Source: Escherichia coli (GTDB lineage: Bacteria > Pseudomonadota > Gammaproteobacteria > Enterobacterales > Enterobacteriaceae). From it: a stretch of DNA of 64,000 bases. Both the position numbers and the translations under genes were made by a program. The notes under the pieces were generated by a model. It was not told the origin of the DNA. It was given only the letters and a program-made list of their open reading frames with translations, and searched no databases. Location of the stretch: assembly GCF_050920415.1 (NCBI RefSeq), contig NZ_CP169309.1, one strand, 5' to 3'. Within the stretch, counting starts at the first letter, position 1. The number at the start of each line of letters is the position of its first letter. Of the stretch, positions 11,363 through 52,300 are shown piece by piece.

Positions 11363-11397
11363 TACTCCCCCCCAGTACCTGATACTACCCCCCAGTA
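11363..11397. promoter_or_regulatory. Tandem RcnR operator sites (TACT-C7/C6-AGTA) in rcnA-rcnR divergent promoter
   Basis: TACTCCCCCCCAGTA at 11363-11377 and TACTACCCCCCAGTA at 11383-11397; matches the known RcnR G/C-tract operator. Confidence 0.8.
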
Positions 11398-11445
11398 GAA
11401 TAATAGTGCTATGATTTTTCATGTTCTTGTTAACCAGGTGTTGCC

Positions 11446-11718
11446 ATGTCTCATACAATCCGTGATAAACAGAAACTGAAAGCGCGTGCCAGTAAGATTC
11501 AGGGTCAGGTCGTGGCGCTCAAGAAAATGCTCGACGAGCCGCACGAATGCGCAGCTGTTCTACAACAGATTGCTGCTATCCGTGGCGCGGTAAACGGCCT
11601 GATGCGCGAAGTGATTAAGGGGCATCTGACGGAACACATCGTTCACCAGGGGGATGAGCTAAAACGTGAAGAAGATCTGGATGTCGTTCTGAAGGTGTTG
11701 GATTCATATATCAAATAA
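11446..11718 (+). CDS. rcnR: Ni/Co-responsive transcriptional repressor RcnR
   Basis: 90 aa ORF, CsoR/RcnR family, divergent from rcnA. Confidence 0.92.
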
Positions 11719-37221: not shown

Positions 37222-40200
37222 TTACGCCTCCTCTTCATGACGGACAAAGCGACTTTTGGTCCACAATGCCAGGCGGTCGAACAGCAGATAAATCACCGGC
37301 GTGGTGAACAGCGTCAGCACCTGGCTAACAATCAGGCCGCCGACCATGCCGATGCCTAACGGACGACGTAGTTCCGCGCCGACTCCGGTGCTCAACATCA
37401 GCGGCAGCGCGCCAAGCAGTGCCGCCAGAGTGGTCATCAGGATCGGACGAAAACGCAGCAAACAGGCCTGGTAAATTGCATCGCGCGGCGACATGCCTTG
37501 CTCGCGCTCGGCAGCCAGCGCGAAGTCGATCATCATGATGGCGTTTTTCTTCACAATACCGATCAGCAAAATAATGCCGATGATGGCGATCACATCCAGC
37601 TCACTTCCGGCAATCATTAGCGCCAGCAGTGCGCCAACACCTGCCGTTGGCAACGTCGAGAGAATGGTGATCGGGTGGATAAAGCTCTCGTACAGAATGC
37701 CGAGCACGATATACATCGCCACCACCGCTGCGACAATCAGCCAGACAGTGCTGCCCAATGCCGACTGGAAGGCGAGGGTGCTGCCCTGGAATTGTGTGGT
37801 GATATCCACCGGCAGATTCAGTGTCTTTTCGGTATCCATAATTGCCTGCACCGCATCACCGAGAGAATAGTTATCCGGCACGTTAAAGGAGATGGTCGTT
37901 ACCGGGAACTGATCCAGATGGTTGATGGAGAGCGGCGCAAAACGCTGCTCAATTTTGGCAATTGAGCTTAACGGCACCACGCCACCGTCGCTGCTGGTCA
38001 GGCGAATGGTATCCAGCGCCGCAAGCCCTGGGGTATTTTCGGTATTGTGCTCCAGCACCACGCGATACTGGTTAGCCTGAGTATAAATAGTGGAAATCAG
38101 CCGCTGACCAAACGCGTTGTACAGGGCGTTATCGACGTCCGCCATGCTGATCCCCAGACGGCTGGCGCTGTCGCGATCAACATTGACATACGCCACCAGC
38201 CCTTTGTCCTGCCAATCGCTGGAGACATCAGAAAGCTGCGGCAGCTGCTGGAGTTTTTCCACGAGTTGCGGCACCCAGGTACTGAGCGCATCCAGCGATG
38301 TGGCCTGCAAGGTAAACTGGTACTGGGTGCGGCTGACCTGAGTATCGATAGTCAGATCCTGCGTTGGTTGCAGGAAGAGATCGACACCCGGCACTTTATC
38401 GACCGCCGATTGCAGACGGGAGATAACTTTTTGCACCCGGTCATCACGTTCATCCAACGGTTTGAGGTTGATCTGTAAACGCGCACTGTTCAGCGACGGG
38501 TTAGTGCCATCAACGCCAACAAACGAGGTCAGACTTTGCACTGCCGGATCCTGCAAAATCACATCCGCGACCTGGCGTTGCCGCTGGGCCATATTGGCAA
38601 AGGAGCTGGACTGCGGTGCCTGCAAAGTGCCCTGAATAATGCCGTTGTCCTGTACCGGGAAGAAACCTTTCGGAATGAACACCCACAATAGAACGCTCAG
38701 CAGCAGCGTGCTGAGCGCCACGCTTAAGGTCAGCCACGGATGATTCAGCACTTTCGCCAGTCCACGACCATAGGCGGCAATTATCCTGTCGAACATTTTT
38801 TCCGAGGCCCGGGAGAAGCGGTTCTGTTTACGCAGCGACTCCTGGCTGAGCATCCGCGCGCACATCATCGGTGTCAGGGTCAGCGACACCACGGCTGAGA
38901 TCAAAATCGCTACCGCCAGGGTAATGGCAAATTCGCGGAACAGTCGCCCGACGATATCGCCCATAAACAGCAGCGGGATCAGCACTGCAATCAGTGAGAA
39001 GGTCAGCGAGATTATGGTAAAGCCGATTTCACCCGCGCCCTTGAGCGCCGCCGCCAACGGTTTTTCGCCTTTTTCGATATAGCGGGAAATGTTTTCGATC
39101 ACCACGATGGCGTCATCGACCACGAATCCGGTGGCGATGGTTAACGCCATCAGCGTCAGGTTATTGATTGAAAAATCGAGAAACACCATAACCGCAAAGG
39201 TGCCAATTAACGACAGCGGCACCGCGACGCCAGGAATGATGGTCGCCGGAATATTGCGCAGAAACAGGTAGATAATCATGACTACCAGCGCGATAGCCAT
39301 CATCAGCTCAAACTGGGTATCGTCGACCGATGCGCGGATATTGGTAGTGCGATCGGAAAGTACCGTCACCTTCACCGATTTCGGCAGACTCTCGGTGAGC
39401 TGTGGCAGCATCTGCCGGATGCTGTCGGCGGTAGAGATAATGTTAGCACCGGGCTGGCGCTGAACATTCATCACAATGGCCTGTTCTTTGTTCGCCCATG
39501 CGCCAAGCCAACTGTTTTCTGCGCCTTGTTCAACGGTTGCGACATCACCAAGACGAATCGGCGCGCCGTTCTGGTAGGCGATAATCAACTGGCGATATTC
39601 ATCTGCAGATTGCATCTGGTCGTTCGCGGAAAGCGTGACCGCGCGGGAAGGGCCGTCGAGGCTACCTTTAGCCGAGTTAACGTTAGCGCCGGTAATGGCG
39701 GTGCGCACGGTTTCGCTGGTCAGGCCGAGGGCGGCAATCGCCTGGGCGTTAAGTTTGACGCGAACAGCCGGACGCTGACCGCCGGAAAGCGTCACCAGCC
39801 CGACGCCGGAAATCTGCGAGATCTTCTGCGCGACGCGGGTTTCCACCATGTCTTCCACTTGCGTCATCGGCATGGCGGTTGATGTGACGGCAAGCGTCAT
39901 GATCGGCGGATCTGCCGGGTTCACTTTGCTGTAAACCGGCGGGTTAGGCAGATCGCTCGGCAACAAGTTGGTCGCAGCGTTAATCGCGGCCTGCACTTCC
40001 TGCTCGGCGACATCCAGCGGTAATGTTAGCTGGAACTGCAAAGTGATAACTGACGCGCCGCCGGAACTTTGCGACGACATCTGTTTCAGGCCGGACATCT
40101 GCCCGAACTGGCGTTCGAGCGGTGCGGTAACGGCAGAGGTCATGACATCCGGGCTGGCACCTGGGTAGAGGGTGACCACCTGAATGGTTGGATAGTCCAC

Positions 40201-40344
40201 TTCCGGCAGCGCCGAAACGGGCAGGGCACGATAACCGATAATCCCGGCGAGTAAGATCGCCACCATCAGCAGCGTGGTGGCGACAGGACGCATAATAAAC
40301 AGGCGCGACGGGCCGCCTGTGCTGCTCGGGGGTAACACCTGCAT
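37222..40344 (-). CDS. mdtB: RND multidrug efflux permease MdtB
   Basis: 1040 aa RND transporter; paralogous to mdtC. Confidence 0.95.
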
Positions 40345-41591
40345 CAGGAGCGTGCTCCTTTTTTCACGTATTCGCGGCTGGTGGCTTTCTCTTCCGAAGT
40401 GGTGGCGCTTTGAGCTTCAACCACTTCCACTTTCGCCCCTTCGGTCAGACGATCAATGCCATCCGTCACTACGCGGTCGCCTGCAGAAATACCTGCGCGG
40501 ATCACCACTTTCTGACTGTCCTGAATGCCCGGCGTCACCAGATGTTTGCTGACTTTGTTTTCGCTATTCAGCACCCAGACAAAATGGCCTTCGTTGCCCA
40601 TTTGCAGGGCGGCGGTGGGGATCACCACGGCGTTTTGTTCGGTGTCGACTAACATGCGAGCGTTAACAAACTGATTGGGAAACAGCGCATCATCCTGATT
40701 ATTAAAGCGTGCTTTCACTTTAATCGTACCGGTAGTGGCATCGATTTGGTTATCGAGACTTAACAGCGTGCCTTCACTTAATTTCTTCGAGTTGGTGCGA
40801 TCCCAGGCTTCAACAACCAGCGGTTTTCCGGCTTTTTGCGCCTGTACTACGGTAGTGATATCGCTTTCCGGCAGGGTAAAGAGCAAATCGATAGGATGCG
40901 TCTGGGTGATCACCACAATCCCGGTGGTATCACCACTGGAGATTTGGTTACCAACATCAACCTGCTTGAGACCAACGCGACCATCGACTGGTGCGGTGAT
41001 GCGGCTCCAGTCGAGTTGCAGCTGCGCACTGGCGACGCTCGCTTCATCAGCCTTAATGGTACCTTCGGTTTCACTGACCAGCGCCTGTTGGGCATCCAAT
41101 TCCTGACGGGAGACGAGATTGGTTTTTGCCAGTTGCTGATAACGCGCTAAATCACGGCGGGCGTTGGCTAGCGTGGCTTTATCTTTTGCCAGTTGCCCCT
41201 GAGCTTGTGCTAATGCAACTTTGAACTGGCTGGGGTCAATTTCTGCCAGTAAATCGCCTGCTTTGACCTGCTGACCCTCCTGGAAATGTAATGCCATCAG
41301 TTGACCATCTACGCGACTGCGCACCGTAACGGTGTTAGCAGCGGTAATCGTACCAAGCCCGGTGAGGTAACGCGGAACCGCCTGTTCCACGGCAGTTGCT
41401 GCCTGAACCGGGGCCAATGGGCCGGAACGCATACCACGGCGGCCACCGGCTGGCGACTGCTGTGCTTGCTTCGTCGCACCTGGCGCTGCGCTCTGGGATT
41501 CATTGCGGCCTTGCCAGAACCAGAAAGCGGCGATGGCGGCGATAACCACCACGATTACGATTACCCAACGGGATTTATAACTGCCTTTCAT
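40344..41591 (-). CDS. mdtA: RND efflux membrane fusion protein MdtA
   Basis: Internal start [16 protein letters not shown] within ORF 40344..41738 gives 415 aa. Confidence 0.92.
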
Positions 41592-41821
41592 CGTTAAGAG
41601 TTTCTCTTCCTGAAACGTTTCGCGGAATGATACTAGTGTAGCCAGCCAATAAGGGAGAAAAATGGAGGAATTATGAAACACTGTCGGGAATCGTCTGAAT
41701 GACGGGCACTTTTGCGAGCACGCATCCAGTAATAACACAGGAAACTATTTTATCTACGCGTTAGCGATAGACTGCATTAAGGGCAAAAGGAGGTAGGCCG
41801 ACGATTTCAGCGGGACGCTGA

Positions 41822-41962
41822 AACGGGAAAGCCCCTCCCGAGGAAGGGGCCTTAAATAAGGAAAGGGTCATGATGAAGTGGATCATCATCGTGGTGCTCT
41901 TAGTCGTTAGCTACCCAGCTTACTAAGACTACCAGGGCGGGGGAAACCCCGCTCTACCCTCA
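41822..41962 (-). ncRNA. Sib-family antisense sRNA (antitoxin), copy 1; ends approximate
   Basis: Minus strand has TTGACA (41992-41997), 17 bp spacer and a weak -10 (TACTTT); transcript would fully overlap the ibs ORF and end at a GC-rich hairpin + U tract near 41822. Confidence 0.6.
41869..41925 (+). CDS. Ibs-family type I toxin, 18 aa hydrophobic peptide (MMKWIIIVVLLVVSYPAY)
   Basis: ATGATGAAG start 8 nt after AAAGGG RBS; hydrophobic 18-residue peptide; below the ORF-track size cutoff. Confidence 0.8.
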
Positions 41963-42150
41963 CTCCTGAAAGTATGCCTTCACAATCAGATTGTCAATCC
42001 GCAGGCTTTGTAGTCTGCGATCCTGCCAGCAAATATTCTTTGCGAGACGTTACGCAATAATCACAGATGAAACTATTTTATCTACGCGTTAGCGATAGAC
42101 TGCATTCAGGGCAAAAGGAGGTAGGCCGCCGATTTCAGCGGGACGCTGAA

Positions 42151-42291
42151 ACGGGAAAGCCCCTCCCGAGGAAGGGGCCTTAAATAAGGAAAGGGTCATG
42201 ATGAAGATACTCATCATCGTGGTGCTCTTAGTCATTAGCTTACCGGCTTACTAAGACTACCAGGGCGGGGGAAACCCCGCTCTACCCTCAC
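42151..42291 (-). ncRNA. Sib-family antisense sRNA, copy 2; ends approximate
   Basis: Same promoter and terminator elements as copy 1, shifted by the repeat period. Confidence 0.6.
42198..42254 (+). CDS. Ibs-family type I toxin, 18 aa (MMKILIIVVLLVISLPAY)
   Basis: Same architecture as copy 1, 329 bp downstream. Confidence 0.8.
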   Translation: MMKILIIVVLLVISLPAY

Positions 42292-42478
42292 TCCTGAAAG
42301 TATGCCTTCACAATCAGATTGTCAATCCGCAGGCTTTGTAGTCTGCGATCCTGCCAGCAAATATTCTTTGCGAGACGTTACGCAATAATCACATGTGAAA
42401 CTATTTTATCTGCAAGTTAGCGATAGACTGCTTGCATGGCGAAAGGAGGTAGGCCGCCGATTTCAGCGGGACGCTGAA

Positions 42479-42625
42479 ACGGGAAAGCCCCTCCCGAGGA
42501 AGGGGCCTTAAATAAGGAAAGGGTCATGATGAAGCTACTCATCATCGTGGTGCTCTTAGTTATTAGCTGGCCAGCTTACTAAGACTACCAGGGCGGGGGA
42601 AACCCCGCTCTACCCTCACTCCTGA
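42479..42625 (-). ncRNA. Sib-family antisense sRNA, copy 3; ends approximate, promoter region diverged
   Basis: TTGACA -35 retained, but the spacer and -10 differ from copies 1 and 2. Confidence 0.5.
42526..42582 (+). CDS. Ibs-family type I toxin, 18 aa (MMKLLIIVVLLVISWPAY)
   Basis: Same architecture; third copy. Confidence 0.8.
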   Translation: MMKLLIIVVLLVISWPAY

Positions 42626-42799
42626 AGTTATGTTACTCCACCCTTATTGTCAATCTGTAAGTCCACGTTCTTGCGGGGCGAATAGCAAAACCCTCTGCGC
42701 TTATGGGCCGAATTCTGAAAGTTGCTTTGCCTGCTCTTATTTCATTATTGCAGTCGGTATGATACCGGACCTCAATAATTCTCTAAGAAAGGATTTCTT

Positions 42800-43459
42800 A
42801 TGAGCGAACAAATCACGTTTGCCACCAGCGATTTTGCCAGTAACCCGGAACCACGTTGCCCCTGCATTTTGCTGTTGGATGTTTCTGGTTCGATGAGTGG
42901 TAGACCTATTAATGAACTTAACGCCGGATTGGTTACCTTTCGCGATGAGCTGCTTGCCGATTCGCTGGCCTTAAAAAGAGTGGAACTCGGTATTGTGACG
43001 TTCGGCCCGGTGCATGTGGAACAACCATTTACCAGCGCCGCTAATTTTTTCCCGCCCATCCTGTTTGCCCAGGGCGATACACCAATGGGGGCCGCCATTA
43101 CCAAAGCCCTGAATATGGTTGAGGAGCGCAAACGTGAGTATCGCGCCAATGGTATTTCCTATTATCGTCCGTGGATTTTCCTGATTACCGATGGCGCACC
43201 AACCGATGAGTGGCAGGCTGCTGCCAACAAGGTGTTTCAGGGGGAAGAAGATAAGAAGTTTGCCTTCTTTTCCATCGGTGTTCAGGGGGCGGATATGAAG
43301 ACGCTGGCCCAAATCAGCGTTCGTCAGCCTTTGCCTCTTCAAGGATTACAATTCCGCGAACTGTTTAGCTGGTTATCCAGTTCGCTGCGTTCGGTTTCCC
43401 GCTCCACGCCGGGAATGGAAGTTGTACTGGAAGCGCCAAAAGGCTGGACGTCAGTGTGA
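42800..43459 (+). CDS. yegL: von Willebrand factor A (vWA) domain protein
   Basis: 219 aa; MIDAS-like DxSxS motif ([11 protein letters not shown]) plus downstream T and D residues (ITDGAPTD). Confidence 0.88.
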
Positions 43460-44217
43460 GCTGGCGTCTGGTTTATGCATCAGCCGTTGGAACGTCGCAC
43501 ATCAGCGCTGACTTGTCTTGCCAGGATGCCTGCCAGATGCAGGTTGTCTGGCTAAATGACCAGCAGCCATTATTGACGGTATTTGTCGCTGATGGCGCAG
43601 GCAGCGTTTCGCAGGGTGGCGAAGGTGCGACGCTTGCCGTCAATGAAGCGATGGCTTATATGATGCAAAAAGTGCAGGGCGGGGAATTGGGGCTTAATGA
43701 TGTCCTCGCAACGGATATTGTGCTGACCGTTCGTCAGCGACTTTTTGCCGAGGCGGAAGCTAAAGAATTAGCAGTTCGTGATTTTGCCTGCACGTTTCTG
43801 GGACTGATTTCATCGCCTAACGGCACATTGATTATGCAGATTGGCGATGGCGGCGTGGTGGTAGATTTGGGTCACGATCTGCAATTGCCGCTCACGCCGA
43901 TGGTGGGTGAATATGCCAACATGACGCATTTCATTACCGATGAAGATGCCGTTTCCAGACTTGAAACTTTCACCAGCACTGAGCGTGCGCATAGAGTTGC
44001 AGCATTTACGGATGGTATTCAGAGACTGGCGTTAAATATGCTGGATAATTCTCCGCATGTGCCTTTCTTTACCCCGTTTTTCAATGGACTGGCGTCAGCA
44101 ACGCAGGAACAACTCGATTTATTACCTGAATTGTTAAAGCAGTTTTTGTCCAGCCCAGCGGTAAACGAGCGTACCGATGATGATAAAACGTTAGCACTGG
44201 CTATGTGGACAGAATGA
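43456..44217 (+). CDS. yegK: PP2C-family Ser/Thr protein phosphatase
   Basis: 253 aa; GTG start overlaps the yegL stop (GTGA), suggesting translational coupling; PP2C-like acidic motifs (VADGAGS, QIGDGG). Confidence 0.85.
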
Positions 44218-44281
44218 ACATCGCATGGCGGTTGAAGACAACGGTTCAACCGCCAGTTTAAGCAATCAATATAATGGCTGG

Positions 44282-44743
44282 CTAGCGAACTAATTTTGCT
44301 CTTAGCTCGTCGGCTTCTTCTTTTGGATAGGTGACCAATAAAGGATCAATGGTATAACCACCGTAAATTTTATCCCCGCGCGTATACATCCAGTCTGAAA
44401 TATCTTCTTTCTTGATTTTCCACTCCTGGCCATATTCTACGTTTGTAACAATACCAGGGTCATTGCTTATTATACCAATAAACATGCCGTTAGAATAAGT
44501 GACATCCGTGAGCCAGAAATGCTCGGTTTCTCCGCGATCGGTTATCGGGGCTTTGACTGCGAAAGTATCAGCATCTTTTTTATTCATAACTTCGATGAAT
44601 TGATCGGTTTCTTTCCGCGCATGTTTAATCGCGTCAGACATCGCCTTTTTATCATAACCTCCTGTCACTAACGTATCCGAAATCTCACTAAAGCCCGCGG
44701 TAGTAAAAAATAGCAGACTCAACATAAGTAATATCTTTTTCAT
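44282..44743 (-). CDS. yegJ: Secreted DUF2314 protein
   Basis: 153 aa; signal peptide MKKILLMLSLLFFTTAGFS; AT-rich gene on the opposite strand between yegK and yegI. Confidence 0.8.
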   Translation of the reverse strand: MKKILLMLSLLFFTTAGFSEISDTLVTGGYDKKAMSDAIKHARKETDQFIEVMNKKDADTFAVKAPITDRGETEHFWLTDVTYSNGMFIGIISNDPGIVTNVEYGQEWKIKKEDISDWMYTRGDKIYGGYTIDPLLVTYPKEEADELRAKLVR

Positions 44744-44943
44744 TTTTTCTCCAGAATCCCTGTGTAGTAAAAGTTAGCAAAAAACCTGTGGAAGTGAATC
44801 ATTATCAGGTTGGAATTGAATTGTATCCTGATGAAATTGCATTATCATTTTTATTCTTGAGTGGGACTCTTCCAATATAGAAATAATTATAATGGGCAGT
44901 GTTATTATTCATTGAAATATAATATGACTGCCCTTGAAACATT

Positions 44944-46890
44944 ATGAAGACAAATATAAAAGTATTTACATCGACAGGTGAATTGACCACTCTCGGGCGT
45001 GAACTGGGCAAAGGCGGCGAAGGCGCGGTTTATGATATCGAGGAGTTTGTCGATAGCGTTGCCAAGATTTATCACACACCTCCACCCGCCTTAAAACAGG
45101 ACAAACTTAGCTTTATGGCTGCGACAGCTGACGCGCAGTTGTTGAATTATGTCGCCTGGCCGCAGGCAACGCTTCATAGTGGACGAGGTGGGAAGGTTAT
45201 CGGTTTTATGATGCCAAAAGTTTCTGGTAAAGAACCGATTCATATGATCTATAGCCCGGCACATCGTCGTCAGAGTTACCCTCATTGCGCGTGGGATTTT
45301 CTCCTCTATGTTGCGCGCAATATTGCTTCATCTTTTGCTACGGTTCACGAGCACGGGCACGTCGTGGGTGACGTAAACCAGAACAGCTTTATGGTAGGCC
45401 GTGACAGCAAAGTGGTGTTGATTGATAGCGACTCCTTTCAGATTAACGCCACTGGAACGCTGCATTTATGCGAAGTCGGCGTGTCGCATTTTACGCCGCC
45501 AGAGCTGCAAACCTTGCCATCATTTGTCGGCTTTGAACGCACCGCGAATCACGATAATTTTGGCCTTGCGTTGCTGATTTTTCACGTATTGTTTGGTGGG
45601 CGGCATCCTTATTCTGGTGTGCCGCTTATCTCTGAGGCGGGTAATGCGCTGGAGACGGATATTGCCCATTTTCGTTATGCCTACGCGTCAGACAATCAGA
45701 GACGTGGCTTAAAACCGCCGCCACGATCGATTCCGCTATCGATGTTACCGGGTGATGTTGCAGCCATGTTTCAGCAGGCATTCACGGAAAGTGGCGTGGC
45801 AACCGGGCGTCCGACGGCAAAAGCGTGGGTTGCGGCACTTGATTTACTACGCCAACAATTAAAGAAATGTACCGTTTCAGCAATGCATGTTTACCCTTGT
45901 CATTTAACCGACTGCCCGTGGTGTGCGCTGGATAATCAAGGCGTTATCTATTTTATTGATCTCGGCGAAGAGGTCATTACCACCAGCGGTGATTTTGTGC
46001 TGGCGAAAGTCTGGGCGATGGTGATGGCGTCAGTAGCACCACCAGCATTGCAACTGCCATTACCCGATCATTTCCAACCAGCTGGCAGGCCGCTTCCTTT
46101 AGGCCTGTTACGGCGTGAATACATTATTCTGATTGAGATCACACTGTCAGCGTTATCGCTGTTGCTTTGCGGTCTTCAGGCAGAACCGCGTTATATTATT
46201 CTGGTGCCTGTGCTGGCGGCTATCTGGATTATTGGCAGTCTGACAAGCAAAGCTTACAAAGCAGAAGTCCAGCACCGTCGTGAGGTATTTAATCGTGCGA
46301 AAATGGACTATGACCATTTAGTCAGCCAGATCCAACAGTTGGGCGGGTTGGAAGGTTTTATCGCCAAACGGACGATGCTCGAAAAAATGAAGGACGAAAT
46401 TCTCGGTTTACCGGAAGAAGAAAAGCGCGCGGTGGCAGCACTTCACGACACCGCAAGGGAACGGCAGAAGCAGAAGTTTCTGGAGGGATTTTTTATTGAT
46501 GTTGCCTCTATTCCCGGCGTTGGCCCTGCGCGTAAAGCGGCGTTACGGTCTTTTGGTATTGAAACAGCAGCAGATGTTACCCGTCGTGGTGTTAAGCAAG
46601 TGAAAGGGTTTGGTGATCATCTGACACAGGCGGTTATCGACTGGAAAGCGAGTTGCGAACGCCGTTTTGTGTTCAGGCCGAATGAAGCGGTAACGCCAGC
46701 AGACAGACAAGCGGTAATGGCGAAAATGACCGCCAAACGACATCGGCTGGAATCGGCGCTGACTGTCGGCGCGACAGAGTTGCAGCGATTCCGCCTTCAT
46801 GCTCCTGCACGGACCATGCCGTTGATGGAACCATTACGTCAGGCAGCGGAGAAACTGGCTCAGGCGCAGGCTGATTTAAGCCGCTGCTGA
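44944..46890 (+). CDS. yegI: Atypical Hanks-like Ser/Thr protein kinase with membrane segment and C-terminal HhH-like domain
   Basis: 648 aa; Gly-rich loop LGKGGEGAVYD, VAKIYH lysine, degenerate catalytic loop VGDVNQNSF, DSDSF, TPPE; hydrophobic stretch around residues 390-440; C-terminal IPGVGPARKAALRSFGIETAADV. Confidence 0.85.
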   Translation: MKTNIKVFTSTGELTTLGRELGKGGEGAVYDIEEFVDSVAKIYHTPPPALKQDKLSFMAATADAQLLNYVAWPQATLHSGRGGKVIGFMMPKVSGKEPIHMIYSPAHRRQSYPHCAWDFLLYVARNIASSFATVHEHGHVVGDVNQNSFMVGRDSKVVLIDSDSFQINATGTLHLCEVGVSHFTPPELQTLPSFVGFERTANHDNFGLALLIFHVLFGGRHPYSGVPLISEAGNALETDIAHFRYAYASDNQRRGLKPPPRSIPLSMLPGDVAAMFQQAFTESGVATGRPTAKAWVAALDLLRQQLKKCTVSAMHVYPCHLTDCPWCALDNQGVIYFIDLGEEVITTSGDFVLAKVWAMVMASVAPPALQLPLPDHFQPAGRPLPLGLLRREYIILIEITLSALSLLLCGLQAEPRYIILVPVLAAIWIIGSLTSKAYKAEVQHRREVFNRAKMDYDHLVSQIQQLGGLEGFIAKRTMLEKMKDEILGLPEEEKRAVAALHDTARERQKQKFLEGFFIDVASIPGVGPARKAALRSFGIETAADVTRRGVKQVKGFGDHLTQAVIDWKASCERRFVFRPNEAVTPADRQAVMAKMTAKRHRLESALTVGATELQRFRLHAPARTMPLMEPLRQAAEKLAQAQADLSRC

Positions 46891-46902
46891 GCCATTTTTC
46901 AA

Positions 46903-48255
46903 TTAACGAAACACCACTTCTGCCCAACGTGCCAGCCCGGCGGTAACCGACCCAAAGTCATCGCCGCCTGCAATCGGAATGCCCGGCAACTGTTCTGCCA
47001 GCGCTTTTTTAATCAGCGGCGATCGGGCGCTACCACCAGTCAGATAGATGACATCCGGTTTTTCCTGGGCGTTATCCAGCGCCAGTTGCACCTGTTCCAG
47101 AATTCGCGCCAGCGGCTGACTGAGGGCGTTTTCCAGCCCTTGTTGGCTAATCAGTGTTGCCAGCTCATCGCTGATAAACGGCAGCGATGCGCGGGTTTCC
47201 GCTGCGCTGGAAAGGGCGATTTTGCTCTCTTCCGCGCTGCGTACCAGCCGATAACTTAAACGCTGACGCCAGACTTTCTGTAACAGGGCCACTTTCTCCG
47301 GTTCGCGGGCGTCGCGTACCAGATCGTTAAGCAGACGACCGTTAGCACTACTGTAGAAATCACTCTGCGCAGGTACATCGTTGATGGCAACTGCATTCCA
47401 CCACGGCAGGATCGGCAGGGCGATGCCTTTTTCAGTTTCGCCACCCATGCCCAGTAATGGCATCAGATTTTTAAACGCCAGTGCGATATCCAGATCGTTA
47501 CCGCCAATACGGCAACCACTGTGACCCAGCAGGCTGGCTTCACGATCGAGGCGCGAACGCCACTGTGGCCCCATTAGCAGTAAAGAACAGTCAGTCGTAC
47601 CACCGCCGATATCCACCACCAGTACGCGTTTTTCTTCCTGCAAGGTGGCTTCGTAATCCAGCCCAGCCGCCACCGGCTCGTACTGGAATACCACGTCCTT
47701 AAACCCGGCACGCTTCGCTGCACGCTCCAGAATCCCTTGTGCCTGGGCGTTTGCCTCATCGCCGCCCAGCCCCTGGAAGTTGATCGGGCGACCAATCACC
47801 GCCTGGGTAATCGCTTCTGGCAGCTGTGTCTGGGCCTGCTTGCGAATGTGCAACATCATTGCGCAGACCAGATCCTCAAACAGCGCCACCTGCTGCGGTT
47901 TTAAGCCGCTGGCACCGAGGAACGATTTTGGTGATTTAACAAACCACACTTCTTCCGGATCATCAATGTACTGCGCCAGTGAGGAAAGGCCGAACTGCAC
48001 GCTTTTCGCCGTGACATCGATATCTTCTTCGCGGTTATAACGAATCGCCCGACGTAATAGCGCCTGCGTTTCATTGTCGTCTGCCGGAACATCATGATGG
48101 CGGTACAGCCATTCGCTTACCGCTTCACGCGTTGGCGCGCAAAGCATTGAAGGCAGCAGCGTGCTGTCGTTTTCCATTTTCAGTAATTGCGGTTTACCGT
48201 CACGCATGACCGCCACTGAACAGTTTGCTGTACCGTAATCAAAACCAATAAACAC
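46903..48255 (-). CDS. yegD: Hsp70-family actin-like ATPase YegD
   Basis: ORF 46903..48318; likely GTG start at 48255 (MFIGFDYGTANCSVAV) gives 450 aa; DnaK-like phosphate loops (VVDIGGGTTD). Confidence 0.85.
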   Translation of the reverse strand: MFIGFDYGTANCSVAVMRDGKPQLLKMENDSTLLPSMLCAPTREAVSEWLYRHHDVPADDNETQALLRRAIRYNREEDIDVTAKSVQFGLSSLAQYIDDPEEVWFVKSPKSFLGASGLKPQQVALFEDLVCAMMLHIRKQAQTQLPEAITQAVIGRPINFQGLGGDEANAQAQGILERAAKRAGFKDVVFQYEPVAAGLDYEATLQEEKRVLVVDIGGGTTDCSLLLMGPQWRSRLDREASLLGHSGCRIGGNDLDIALAFKNLMPLLGMGGETEKGIALPILPWWNAVAINDVPAQSDFYSSANGRLLNDLVRDAREPEKVALLQKVWRQRLSYRLVRSAEESKIALSSAAETRASLPFISDELATLISQQGLENALSQPLARILEQVQLALDNAQEKPDVIYLTGGSARSPLIKKALAEQLPGIPIAGGDDFGSVTAGLARWAEVVFR

Positions 48256-48333
48256 GAAATAATCCCCATGCCGGTGAAGAAGGGGCGTGACTTTAGCGAA
48301 ATGTTGCCGTCGCGACAACCGGAATATGAAAGC

Positions 48334-48341
48334 AAAGCGCA
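48334..48341 (+). promoter_or_regulatory. Ada box (AAAGCGCA) in alkA promoter
   Basis: AAAGCAAAGCGCA about 50 bp upstream of the alkA start; alkA is a known Ada regulon member. Confidence 0.55.
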
Positions 48342-48388
48342 GCGTCTGAATAACGTTTATGCTGAAAGCGGATTAACAAGGAGATGCG

Positions 48389-49237
48389 ATGTATACCCTG
48401 AACTGGCAGCCGCCGTATGACTGGTCGTGGATGTTGGGTTTTCTCGCCGCCCGCGCGGTGAGCGGTGTGGAAACGGTCGCTGACGATTTTTATGCCCGTA
48501 GTCTGGCGGTGGGCGAATATCGCGGCGTGGTGACTGCTATTCCGGATATAGCCAGCCATACTCTGCACATAAATTTAAGTGCAGGTTTAGAACCTGTTGC
48601 CGCTGAGTGTCTGGCGAAAATGAGCCGCCTGTTTGATCTGCAATGTCACCCGCAGATTGTTAACGGTGCGTTGGGCAAGTTAGGCGCGGCGCGGCCCGGA
48701 TTGCGTTTACCTGGTTGTGTTGATGCTTTTGAGCAGGGCGTGCGGGCGATTTTAGGCCAACTGGTGAGCGTGGCGATGGCGGCAAAATTGACCGCCAGAG
48801 TGGCACAGCTTTATGGCGAACGGCTGGATGATTTTCCGGAGTATGTCTGCTTCCCCACGCCTCAGCGGCTGGCTGCAGCCGACCCGCAGGCATTAAAAGC
48901 GTTAGGTATGCCGTTGAAACGGGCAGAGGCGCTGATTCATCTGGCAAATGCGGCGCTGGAGGGCACCTTACCAATGATAATACCGGGCGACGTAGAACAA
49001 GCGATGAAAAAACTGCAAACTTTTCCGGGTATCGGGCGCTGGACGGCGAATTATTTCGCCTTGCGCGGCTGGCAGGCGAAAGATGTTTTCCTGCCGGATG
49101 ATTATCTGATTAAACAGCGATTTCCGGGAATGACACCGGCACAAATCCGCCGATATGCCGAGCGCTGGAAGCCTTGGCGTTCTTATGCGCTGTTGCATAT
49201 CTGGTATACGGAAGGCTGGCAACCAGACGAAGCATGA
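48389..49237 (+). CDS. alkA: DNA-3-methyladenine glycosylase II
   Basis: 282 aa; HhH-GPD fold with FPGIGRWTANYFALRG. Confidence 0.93.
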   Translation: MYTLNWQPPYDWSWMLGFLAARAVSGVETVADDFYARSLAVGEYRGVVTAIPDIASHTLHINLSAGLEPVAAECLAKMSRLFDLQCHPQIVNGALGKLGAARPGLRLPGCVDAFEQGVRAILGQLVSVAMAAKLTARVAQLYGERLDDFPEYVCFPTPQRLAAADPQALKALGMPLKRAEALIHLANAALEGTLPMIIPGDVEQAMKKLQTFPGIGRWTANYFALRGWQAKDVFLPDDYLIKQRFPGMTPAQIRRYAERWKPWRSYALLHIWYTEGWQPDEA

Positions 49238-49244
49238 CGTTGGT

Positions 49245-49340
49245 CGCCGGATGCGGTGCGAGCGCCTTATCCGGCCTGGGGAATGAGCGATTTGTAGGCA
49301 TGATAAGACGCGTTAGCGTCGCATCAGGCAATGGGCAAAC
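49245..49340. repeat. REP/BIME elements
   Basis: GCCGGATGCGGTGCGAGCGCCTTATCCGGCC and TGATAAGACGCGTTAGCGTCGCATCAGGCA palindromic units between alkA and dgcE. Confidence 0.85.
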
Positions 49341-49346
49341 GCTCCC

Positions 49347-52300
49347 TCAGTTAATCGCGAAATAACTGTTATTCACCAGCAAATCCAACGGTTGGGCATC
49401 GGCAATCACATCACCATAAATCAGATCAACGCCGATGCCAGAAAGCGTATCCATCACTAAGGGTAAAACAACTGGCCCGGCGATAGTCTTCACCCCGAGT
49501 CGCTGAGCGTGCCCCTGAATAATCGTAATCAGCATCTCATCCATCAAATTACCCTGCACGCTGGCGCATAGCTCACCGTCAAGTAGCAGGTAATCTGCCA
49601 TATTCGCTTTCAGCGTGTTGAAAATTTGCAGATCGCGACCCACCTGGCTGAGCACTATCCGACATCCCGCCAGCCGTAGTTTTTGCACGCTTTCTGCGTG
49701 ATCGAAAACCGCTTCTGCCGGAATAATCAGATGTAATAACCGTGGTGGTAGAGGGCTATTTTCCAGCTGCTCAATTAGTTCATTCACCAGCGAGGCGCTA
49801 CTCAAACCGGCAACAGAAAGGGGGAGGGCGATGCTTAAGCCTTTACTGGCAATCGCTTTTGCGGTCTGCTGGAAAAATTCATTGAGTACCCGGCGGTCAA
49901 GAGCATGGTTAAGCGCCGGATCACTGAAGCTACGACGAAATGTTTGTTCATCAAAAATCTCGCCTTCGCAACCCCAGAGTTTTAGTGATATCAACCACAA
50001 ATTACGCGCTTCCGGGATCCGTGGCGAAGCGACGCCGTGGGCGATCATCATCAACTGATTCTCTTTAATCATCCGCCACTGTTCATCAATCGACATCGCC
50101 GCCCGTTCGCTATGTGCGTCAGCATGCTGCGGTTCGTAAACTGTCACCCGGCCGCGGCCACCATTTTTGGAGGCATAACAGGCGATGTCAGCCTGCGACA
50201 TCACTTCAACCGCCTGATGATTGTTGTCATCAATCAAGGTAATCCCGGCACTGGCACCTACCCGATGTACACGTCCTTCCCATATAAAGTGATAGTCATT
50301 CACGGCACTGATAATGCGTGTAGCGATAAAACGCGCACTTTCGACATTACAATCTGGCAGCAGCAGACCAAATTCATCGCCACCGAGTCGCGCCAGCACG
50401 TCGCTGGAGCGCAGCATACTCAGCATCAATGACGCCAGTTCGCGCAACAAAGCGTCGCCAGCGGCGTGTCCGGCGCTGTCATTCACCGCTTTAAAGCGAT
50501 CAAGATCGATAAACACCAGTGCATGTCGCTGATGTGTACTGTTTACCGTTTGCAGCAGGATGCGTAGTTGCTTCTCAAAACTGGCGCGATTGGCGAGATG
50601 CGTCAGTGCATCATGGGAGGCGCTGTAGCTCAGCTGCCGTAACATTTTGCGTGATTCGGTGACGTCCTGAATCACCAGAACCGAACCAATATTGCTGCCA
50701 TCCAGAGTACTTAGCGGTGTAATACTGTAATGCACGTCGTAGCTGCCGCCGCTTCGACAGTGCAACACTACATCTTGTTCAATCGCGGAACGCGAGGTGT
50801 CGGCACTGTAAATGTTCTCCATTAATGGCCCGTTGTCGCCAAAAGTAATATGCAACACCGTCAGGAGCGGAACACCTAACGCTTCTTCCTGCGTCCAGCC
50901 GCTCATCTTCTCCGCCACTGGATTCATAAAGGTAATTTTCATCGCCATGTCAATACAGACCACGGCTTCGCCGATGGAGTCCAGCGTAATATGCAGGCGC
51001 TCTTTTTCCTGAAACAGTGCCTCGTTAAGCTGTTTCACTTCAGTCATATCCATATTGATGCCAAGCAGGCGTTCAACTTCGCCTTCTTTATTCAGTACCC
51101 GGTTGGCGAGGGCGCGGATATGGCGGATACCGTCTTTCACGGCAATGCGAAATTCCAGTTTAAAGGGAGAGCGCGATTGCAATGAATCGCGAATCACTTT
51201 TTCGGCGTGCTGGCGATCTTCCGGCAGCACGCATTCGTACCACACCTGCCAGTTCGGTTTGATATGCGGAGGAATTTCATACAGCTCGAACATCCGCTTA
51301 TCCCAGCTAAAAATATTCGGCTTTAGCTCCCACTCCCAGATGCCAATCCCGCCCGCTTCGTTAGCCAGCGTGATGCGCTCCATCAGTTGCTGGTTCACCT
51401 GTTCGGTGCGTTTTAGCTCGTTAATGTCTTCAATCTGAGCGATAAAATAGAGCGGCGTACCATCGGTGTGGCGCACCAGTGAGACGGCAAGCAACGCCCA
51501 GACAACATCGCCATTGCGGTTGTAGTAGCGTTTTTCCATTGAATAGGTGTTTATTTCACCGCTTATCAGCTTTTCAACCTGTTGCAGATCTTTATTGAGA
51601 TCCTCCGGCCAGGTCAGTTGCTGAAAGGTAAGTCCGCGCAGTTCTTCCTGACTGTAACCGAGAAACTGGCAGAGCGCTTTGTTGGATTGCAGCCATTGCC
51701 CCTCGGTGCCCACTAATGCCATGCCGATGGCGGAATATTCCATCGCGTTCCGAAAGCGGGTTTCGCTTTCGGAAATGTGTTTGCGTTCCGCACGAAAGGC
51801 ATACATCACCATCGTCATGATGTTGGCGGGCAGCAGGATCAGCAAAAACGGTAGCCACGGCATATGGCTCATCAGGTATGTACGCGGCGTAGCAAGCAGG
51901 GAGGGATCAGCGGCCATCATCAGTGACACCATCATCACCGTGGTAAGGAAGATCAAAAAGGCTTCCATTCGTGGCAGGCGCACGGCGCTCCACATCAACA
52001 GCACAATAATGAAAGTAAAAGGCCACGGCAGATACAGCATCGAAAGCCAGCTTAACGTCAGTGTGATGGCTAACGTGAGCAGCGACTCAAAAAGCAACCT
52101 TGGGTTGCGATGGCGCAGCAGATAGTGTGGTTTAAATAACAATCCCAGCGGCACCAGTGCCAGGGCGCCGATGGATTCTGACAGTACCCATATCAAAAAT
52201 GCCCTGAGAGGATCGTCTCCGGGCGTCAGCAGGATAACCAGAATACCCCCTAACAGAGGTGGAACAATGGCGCTGCCGAGTGCCAGACGCAGCCAGTCAG

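Follow-up and report, generated by a model that had tools for sequence, protein, structure and literature searches.

The gene yegD occupies positions 46903..48255 on the minus strand of the window, by which we mean the whole stretch of 64,000 nucleotides of Escherichia coli DNA that was analysed. Both the open reading frame and the RefSeq annotation give these coordinates, which run from a GTG start codon at 48255 to the stop codon (included) and correspond to a protein of 450 amino acids; in an identical E. coli record, RefSeq applies the name yegD to the same coordinates. The gene order in the window is mdtA, three ibs/sib copies, yegL, pphC (yegK), yegJ, yegI, yegD, alkA, and dgcE, and the layout at the yegD locus of K-12 is identical. 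On one side, yegD converges on the kinase gene yegI (44944-46890, plus strand), and 12 bp (46891..46902) separate the stop codons of the two genes. On the other side it diverges from alkA (48389..49237, plus strand), which encodes DNA-3-methyladenine glycosylase 2, with a region of 133 bp (48256-48388) between the two start codons. The first-pass annotation had described yegD as lying beside kinase/phosphatase genes, 12 bp from the convergent yegI and 133 bp from the divergent alkA, and every one of its coordinates was correct. yegD itself is an already known, annotated, and classified E. coli gene.

The mechanical open reading frame on the minus strand extends past the GTG at 48255 to a TTG at 48318. 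The GTG start is supported by the homologues, which align from residue 1, and by the Hsp70 DxGT motif, which falls on residues 6-9. From the sequence we also read a Shine-Dalgarno element, GGGGA (48263..48267, minus strand), 7 nt 5' of the GTG, and the surrounding GGCATGGGGA was unchanged in seven of the eight aligned species. Compared with K-12, the YegD protein of the window is identical at 438 of 450 residues, with none of the 12 differences in the motifs discussed below, and there are 2 base changes in the 133-bp region, both close to the alkA start codon. With so few differences, and none in the YegD motifs, the K-12 literature can be applied to the window. As a separate observation, the yegD allele of this strain is unusually divergent, being 90-95% identical at the DNA level to most E. 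coli records.

At the protein level, YegD matched the NCBIfam model NF008673 with 811.1 bits (cut-off 331), residues 1-450 aligning with profile positions 1-450, and is a full-length member of the YegD family (NF008673/PRK11678, 'HSP70 family protein YegD', E. coli b2069). This score and the thousands of YegD homologues found identify yegD as a real gene. Where an organism could be assigned to the closest relatives recovered in our searches, nearly all were proteobacterial. The Pfam HSP70 model (PF00012) covered YegD only through model positions 2-205 and 249-349 of 599, and model positions 350-599 had no match in the protein. Structure prediction from the single sequence was unusable (pLDDT 39) and was replaced by an AlphaFold2 model built from an alignment of 49 sequences. 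This alignment, of homologues with 30-89% identity, also served for the conservation analysis. The resulting model (pLDDT 95, pTM 0.91) consists of a single nucleotide-binding domain, and the best 50 PDB matches to it were all nucleotide-binding domains of DnaK, Hsp70, BiP, or mortalin (E ∼1e-21, ∼20% identity). A search of AFDB50 returned a large set of YegD-like proteins with TM values of 0.8-0.99.

We then placed the Hsp70 motifs with a profile alignment (hhalign, probability 99.9), in which YegD 4-449 mapped onto DnaK 3-383. The DnaK sequence used in the alignments was cross-checked by the PDB alignment to Thermus thermophilus DnaK and by the fold search. YegD residues K110, E193, D215, T220, and D222 were the equivalents of DnaK K70, E171, D194, T199, and D201, and G407-G408 of YegD aligned with the DnaK adenosine motif. 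K110 sits within the family motif SPKSFLG; a pairwise MAFFT alignment with DnaK had put the catalytic lysine wrongly, and the K110 assignment comes from the profile alignment. Residues D6, G8, T9, K110, E193, D215, G217-G219, T220, D222, and G407-G408 were invariant in the 49 homologues. All motifs of the Hsp70 nucleotide-binding domain are thus present in YegD, namely phosphate-1 (DxGTxN), the catalytic Lys and Glu, phosphate-2 (DxGGGTxD), and the adenosine GG. The earlier proposal that YegD has DnaK-type nucleotide-binding motifs is borne out by the alignment of its catalytic residues with DnaK and their invariance among the 49 homologues. The accompanying statement that YegD is shorter than DnaK and lacks a lid also held, since its C-terminal end corresponds to DnaK position 383 and only the nucleotide-binding part of Pfam HSP70 was matched.

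Within the divergent region, an Ada-box-like AAAGCGCA had been noted previously, and we found it on the plus strand at 48334-48341. It overlaps the published Ada box of alkA, AATATGAAAGCAA (PMC6505713, Table 7), which corresponds to 48323-48335, so that the Ada site upstream of alkA spans 48323..48341 on the plus strand. As a bare 8-mer, AAAGCGCA shows no enrichment, as it occurs 3 times in the window where 5.35 matches would be expected, and its meaning therefore derives from its position and not from statistics. In both the sequence of the Ada box (AAT-N6-GCAA) and its position 5' of alkA, the site is the same as the published element of the Ada-dependent alkA promoter and belongs to alkA, the neighbour of yegD. 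In an alignment of upstream regions from eight species, the Ada site was kept in every species with an adjacent alkA.

The same alignment pointed to a separate element for yegD. The hexamer TAAAGT (48290..48295, minus strand), to which we assign a putative -10 role, was invariant in all eight aligned species, and its conservation reached Providencia, where the YegD protein identity is 54%. At a spacing of 17 nt from it lies TTGTCG (48313..48318, minus strand), a candidate -35 hexamer of which the GTTG core was present in six of the eight species and the full TTGTCG in five, with Acerihabitans carrying TTGCCT. The yegD leader down to the GGGGA Shine-Dalgarno was also conserved. This candidate promoter scores 8/12 relative to the consensus and was missed by our promoter scan, which had a threshold of 9/12. 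yegD thus appears, as judged from these conserved hexamers, to have its own sigma-70-like promoter (TTGTCG-17-TAAAGT), arranged back to back with that of alkA. A hairpin in the yegD leader that would mask the Shine-Dalgarno (CCCC/GGGG) was considered and rejected: it is conserved but invariant, showing no covariation, and the leader folded no better than shuffled sequences (z = +1.5).

The closeness of the two promoters raises the idea that yegD takes part in the adaptive response to alkylation, with methylated Ada in the shared 133-bp region also controlling the yegD promoter. The geometry gives this some appeal, because the site at 48323-48341 lies approximately 40-55 bp upstream of the yegD start inferred from TAAAGT, and Ada occupies a similar upstream position at the ada and aidB promoters. 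However, the box is inverted with respect to yegD, and the yegD promoter footprint persists where alkA is not adjacent, being present in Enterobacter, whose alkA is 1.1 kb distant, as well as in Acerihabitans and Providencia, which have no adjacent alkA. In addition, the Ada regulon is consistently given as ada, alkB, alkA, and aidB, and yegD is not mentioned in the main texts of the alkylation transcriptome papers, which cover an MNNG tiling array and MMS with an ada mutant (PMC6505713, PMC2753364); those supplements that were retrievable were uninformative. Membership of yegD in the Ada response is improbable in our judgement, and so is the related idea that methylated Ada modulates yegD, by activation or by occlusion, by virtue of the back-to-back promoters.

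Published work points to another level of yegD control. Among the genes that the sRNA RyhB activated in a ribosome-profiling study, yegD responded most strongly; a translational fusion confirmed the activation, which a transcriptional fusion did not show (PMC4666370). We looked for a corresponding pairing site using a RyhB sequence that was verified as RF00057. Folded as a full-length duplex with RyhB, the yegD leader gave -50.7 kcal/mol, no improvement on the mean of shuffled sequences (-51.8 kcal/mol), and a seed-restricted scan gave -18.6 versus a background of -18.1, so that no pairing site could be assigned. This null result agrees with the poor predicted RyhB-yegD energy and the CopraRNA rank of 2,422 reported earlier (PMC7154689). 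An Rfam scan identified no family at yegD and three Sib RNAs, all of them 5' of yegL.

On the opposite side of the gene, no terminator was found in the 12 bp between the yegI and yegD stop codons (46891..46902). A weak terminator-like hairpin in the 3' end of yegI (46732..46747, minus strand) is a possible 3' end of the yegD transcript, but with four terminator-like sites in the region against 2.3 expected by chance it amounts to a weak lead. The pair yegD-yegI is included among 165 convergent excludons that recur in half or more of 58 RNA-seq sets of MG1655 (PMC12288877), and such a transcript overlap fits both the terminator-less gap and a weak hairpin inside yegI. The gap and the excludon entry together suggest a scenario in which the sole real link between yegD and yegI acts in cis, through overlapping convergent mRNAs that each damp the expression of the other. 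We regard this scenario as possible but rather doubtful, because both genes are weakly expressed in standard conditions and because the arrangement is recent and Escherichia-specific, and may therefore represent tolerated read-through instead of selected regulation.

Since the first-pass annotation had also raised a speculative link between yegD and the kinase module, we wondered whether the genes on this side travel together in other genomes. Besides yegI, the cassette comprises yegL (vWA; 42800-43459, plus strand) and pphC (PP2C; 43456-44217, plus strand), and in E. coli it is interrupted by yegJ (44282-44743, minus strand). Co-occurrence of YegD and the cassette was scored as neighbourhood within 10 kb, with one genome scanned per species, yielding 78 loci with YegD relatives of 27-95% identity, almost entirely from Gamma-, Beta-, and Alphaproteobacteria. 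By tblastn, yegI, pphC, and yegJ were found within 10 kb of YegD homologues at none of the 78 loci in other species, and the sole match to YegL at these loci was a fragment of 43 amino acids in E. albertii. All-against-all clustering of 1,189 flanking open reading frames from 79 loci revealed no recurrent neighbour family of YegD; the commonest neighbours were LysR regulators (12 of 79 loci), followed by chemoreceptors, and the remainder formed local synteny blocks. YegD shows a wide vertical distribution and no conserved gene partner.

Within the enterobacteria, the order asmA-dcd-udk-dgcE-alkA-yegD-(ibs)-mdtABC was found in E. albertii, Citrobacter werkmanii, Enterobacter sp., Salmonella enterica, and one more enterobacterial contig. 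In all five, yegD directly precedes mdtA, with ibs between them in some. The location of Salmonella ryeC between yegD and STM2126 (PMC2515195) agrees with this yegD-mdtA order, and alkA-yegD-(ibs)-mdtA is the ancestral one. In E. albertii, a 5' remnant of yegL survives at a distance of 22 bp from the stop codon of yegD, which indicates that the cassette was already in place at an early stage of Escherichia and that E. albertii subsequently lost it but retained yegD. The G+C content of the cassette (0.47-0.53) and of yegJ (0.39-0.43) is lower than that of yegD (0.55-0.58), supporting a foreign origin. The picture suggested by these data is that, in the lineage of Escherichia, a mobile vWA-PP2C-kinase cassette would have been inserted between yegD on one side and ibs/mdtA on the other.

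The converse search, starting from YegI, gave a matching result. YegI homologues with approximately 60% identity have a patchy distribution, occurring in Klebsiella spallanzanii, Piscinibacter aquaticus, Chromobacterium haemolyticum, and Serratia, and in all four cases they lie within a contiguous cassette of vWA (218-219 aa), PP2C (253 aa), and kinase (646-652 aa) genes. None of these four loci, each from a different genus, has an Hsp70-like gene within 7 kb of the cassette, and yegJ is absent from all four. The four cassettes sit in islands of defence or mobile genes, and their surroundings contain GmrSD, BrxR, JetB, AbiH, a KAP NTPase, integrases, IS66, Tn7 TniQ/TniB, SymE, and RHS genes. 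The three-gene architecture is the same as that of the TerY-P triad, which combines a TerY-like vWA protein, a PP2C phosphatase, and a Ser/Thr kinase (Anantharaman 2012 and Gao 2020, summarised in PMC11090510); YegD is no member of this triad, and the E. coli yegL-pphC-yegI copy differs in being broken up by yegJ. The PADLOC v2 models did not recognize YegL or PphC and gave only weak kinase matches for YegI, and with PADLOC there was no meaningful defence-system match for YegD, YegL, PphC, or YegJ.

These results bear directly on the possibility that YegD is a functional part of the kinase/phosphatase module, acting as a chaperone-like effector, substrate, or sensor together with YegI, PphC, and YegL. 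The adjacency of yegI and yegD is near-fixed in E. coli, where the 5.5-kb region is present over at least 80% of its length in 5377 of 5426 genomes, and overproduction of the island gene product YegJ, leaky or induced, raised yegD mRNA by log2 values of 3.0 and 1.8 (PMC13232886). However, the adjacency within E. coli is inherited synteny, the two genes cannot share an operon as they are convergent, and YegJ overproduction damages the envelope and membrane and changes hundreds of transcripts. The YegJ effect leaves room for some connection in trans to the inserted island. For the part of PphC, it has been reported to dephosphorylate YegI, and no YegD role is reported there (bioRxiv 10.1101/303594). 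With the cassette genes absent within 10 kb at 78 of 78 YegD loci of other species, no Hsp70-like neighbour at any of the four YegI cassettes of other genera, a G+C content of the cassette unlike that of yegD, and yegD retained in E. albertii after loss of the cassette, we consider a role of YegD in this module highly improbable. The proposed link, judged by co-occurrence of yegD and yegI within 10 kb, fails outside Escherichia.

We can therefore state that, of the two links considered speculative at the outset, the one to the kinase is contradicted by comparative genomics and the one to alkylation is unsupported. yegD came to adjoin the kinase module by chance, through insertion of the island, and the Ada box is that of alkA. 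Transcript overlap and the induction of yegD by YegJ do connect yegD to its neighbours, and neither is a functional partnership; the yegD neighbourhood is uninformative about the cellular role of YegD. This should stop its annotation, through guilt by association, as a kinase-linked or alkylation-linked chaperone. Useful leads for YegD come instead from the effects of RyhB and YegJ reported in the literature, and from its conserved promoter and leader. The analysis sets the record straight and has little significance otherwise; YegD is among the few conserved E. coli Hsp70-family proteins without a known role.

Altogether, the data make it likely that YegD is a vertically inherited, stand-alone Hsp70-type nucleotide-binding domain, that yegI came to lie beside its gene through insertion of the cassette, and that yegD probably has its own promoter. 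As an enterobacterial and proteobacterial gene product, YegD would belong to the fold class of actin/hexokinase/Hsp70 ATPases. Judging by its conserved motifs, it would bind and hydrolyse ATP like Hsp70. It could presumably not clamp peptides and would probably not be driven by DnaJ-type partners. Its most likely mode of action would be that of a conformational switch under the control of ATP, with the insertions of YegD serving to contact a partner. The gene would be expressed from a weak promoter belonging to yegD itself and would additionally be controlled post-transcriptionally. With YegD seen as a switch and not as a peptide clamp, the label 'molecular chaperone' is not established.

The comparison with known systems bears most directly on that label, which in RefSeq implies that YegD works as a conventional Hsp70 chaperone in a cycle with J-proteins and GrpE. 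YegD does match Hsp70-family models and structures, and chaperone surveys group it with dnaK, hscA, and hscC, merely naming it among the Hsp70s (PMC3930520; PMC6598250). It has in common with the nucleotide-binding domain of DnaK/Hsp70 the fold, the catalytic residues, and the phosphate-1, phosphate-2, and adenosine motifs, at approximately 20% identity and with target-normalised TM values of 0.64-0.72 for those top matches that comprise the nucleotide-binding domain only. DnaK continues with the VKDVLLLD linker, a beta-sandwich substrate-binding domain, and a helical lid, all three of which are absent from YegD. DnaK residues R167, N170, and T173 contact the J-domain, and in the profile alignment they are replaced in YegD by V189, Y192, and V195. 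Moreover, scores against the DnaK/HscA equivalog models were far under the cut-offs (58-86 bits versus 620-1019), and no J-protein or GrpE gene was recurrent near YegD loci. Taken together, these differences make a conventional chaperone cycle very unlikely, and the RefSeq label overstates the sequence support, which extends to a nucleotide-binding domain without a J-domain interface. YegD also departs from DnaK within the shared domain, with an insertion at ∼43-80, a larger helical region at ∼257-335, and a shortened counterpart of DnaK segment 75-110; its insertions are family-specific and fall in regions matching Hsp70 subdomains IB and IIB.

A different comparison is suggested by the K-12 literature, in which YegD carries the label 'actin family protein', and would make it an actin-like filament former of the MreB, ParM, or FtsA type instead of an Hsp70-type switch. 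Weak partial matches to MreB models, of ∼55-100 residues around the phosphate-2 motif, are in line with that label. However, they are limited to the core of the shared ATPase fold and reach 27-40 bits against cut-offs of 293-515, and no MreB or actin-like model matched YegD over its full length. Furthermore, all of the best structural matches of YegD were Hsp70 nucleotide-binding domains, and the equivalents of the Hsp70-specific K70 and E171 are invariant in the YegD family, which makes a filament former extremely unlikely. As a concept, an Hsp70 ATPase core that lacks the substrate-binding half is also found in the truncated Hsp70s of eukaryotes, such as HSPA13/STCH, which have no peptide-binding domain.

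The sequence upstream of yegD is conserved and comprises a leader with a candidate promoter (window 48256-48318, minus strand), which reads TTGTCG-17-TAAAGT and then CCCCTTCTTCACCGGCATGGGGA. Pairing between CCCC and GGGG in this leader could, judged from the sequence, mask the Shine-Dalgarno sequence, and it might be tied to the published translational activation of yegD by RyhB (PMC4666370). This pairing was checked for covariation and for a folding signal, neither of which was found. As for the genes on this side, E. coli carries an inverted alkA between the co-directional dgcE and yegD, whereas in Acerihabitans arboris (locus L005, 6548-11368) dgcE is followed by yegD on the same strand at a spacing of 72 bp, with no alkA in between.

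We observed that window 38000-52000 (mdtB to dgcE) is only ~93-97% identical to K-12, as opposed to ~97-99% past 52 kb. In addition, the yegD allele reached at least 99% identity in just 2 of 5413 E. coli records, the majority being at 90-95%. Together, the lower K-12 identity and the rare allele suggest that this segment is a divergent or imported haplotype. The SIB_RNA/ibs toxin-antitoxin is present in three tandem copies (window 41855-42653), compared with two in K-12 (sibA/ibsA and sibB/ibsB) and a single ibs in Salmonella.

On the other side of yegD lies the yegL-pphC-yegI cassette (window 42800-46890). In E. albertii (locus L002), a 43-aa remnant of the yegL 5' end (11376-11495, minus strand; 51% identity) is separated from the yegD stop by 22 bp, and mdtA comes next after it. 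Since this stump sits beside yegD, the cassette was evidently lost there by deletion, as opposed to never having been acquired. The E. coli cassette is itself split by yegJ (window 44282-44743), which lies on the opposite strand, 2.2 kb downstream of yegD and co-directional with it. With its very low G+C of 0.39-0.43 and its absence from the cassettes of Klebsiella, Piscinibacter, Chromobacterium and Serratia, yegJ looks like a secondary insertion.

YegI (window 44944-46890) is named 'helix-hairpin-helix domain-containing protein' in public sources, and no Pfam kinase match was found for it among precomputed public records. Its kinase domain is followed by a Cys-rich CPWC motif and a hydrophobic segment, with a helix-hairpin-helix motif (GVGPARKAALRSFGIETAADV) at the C-terminal end. 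Against PADLOC v2, YegL and PphC gave no match, and YegI gave only weak kinase matches (PD-T4-6/MkoA). Homologues of yegL-pphC-yegI occur in defence or mobile islands of four other genera, and the architecture of the cassette (vWA, PP2C, Ser/Thr kinase) is that of the TerY-P triad.
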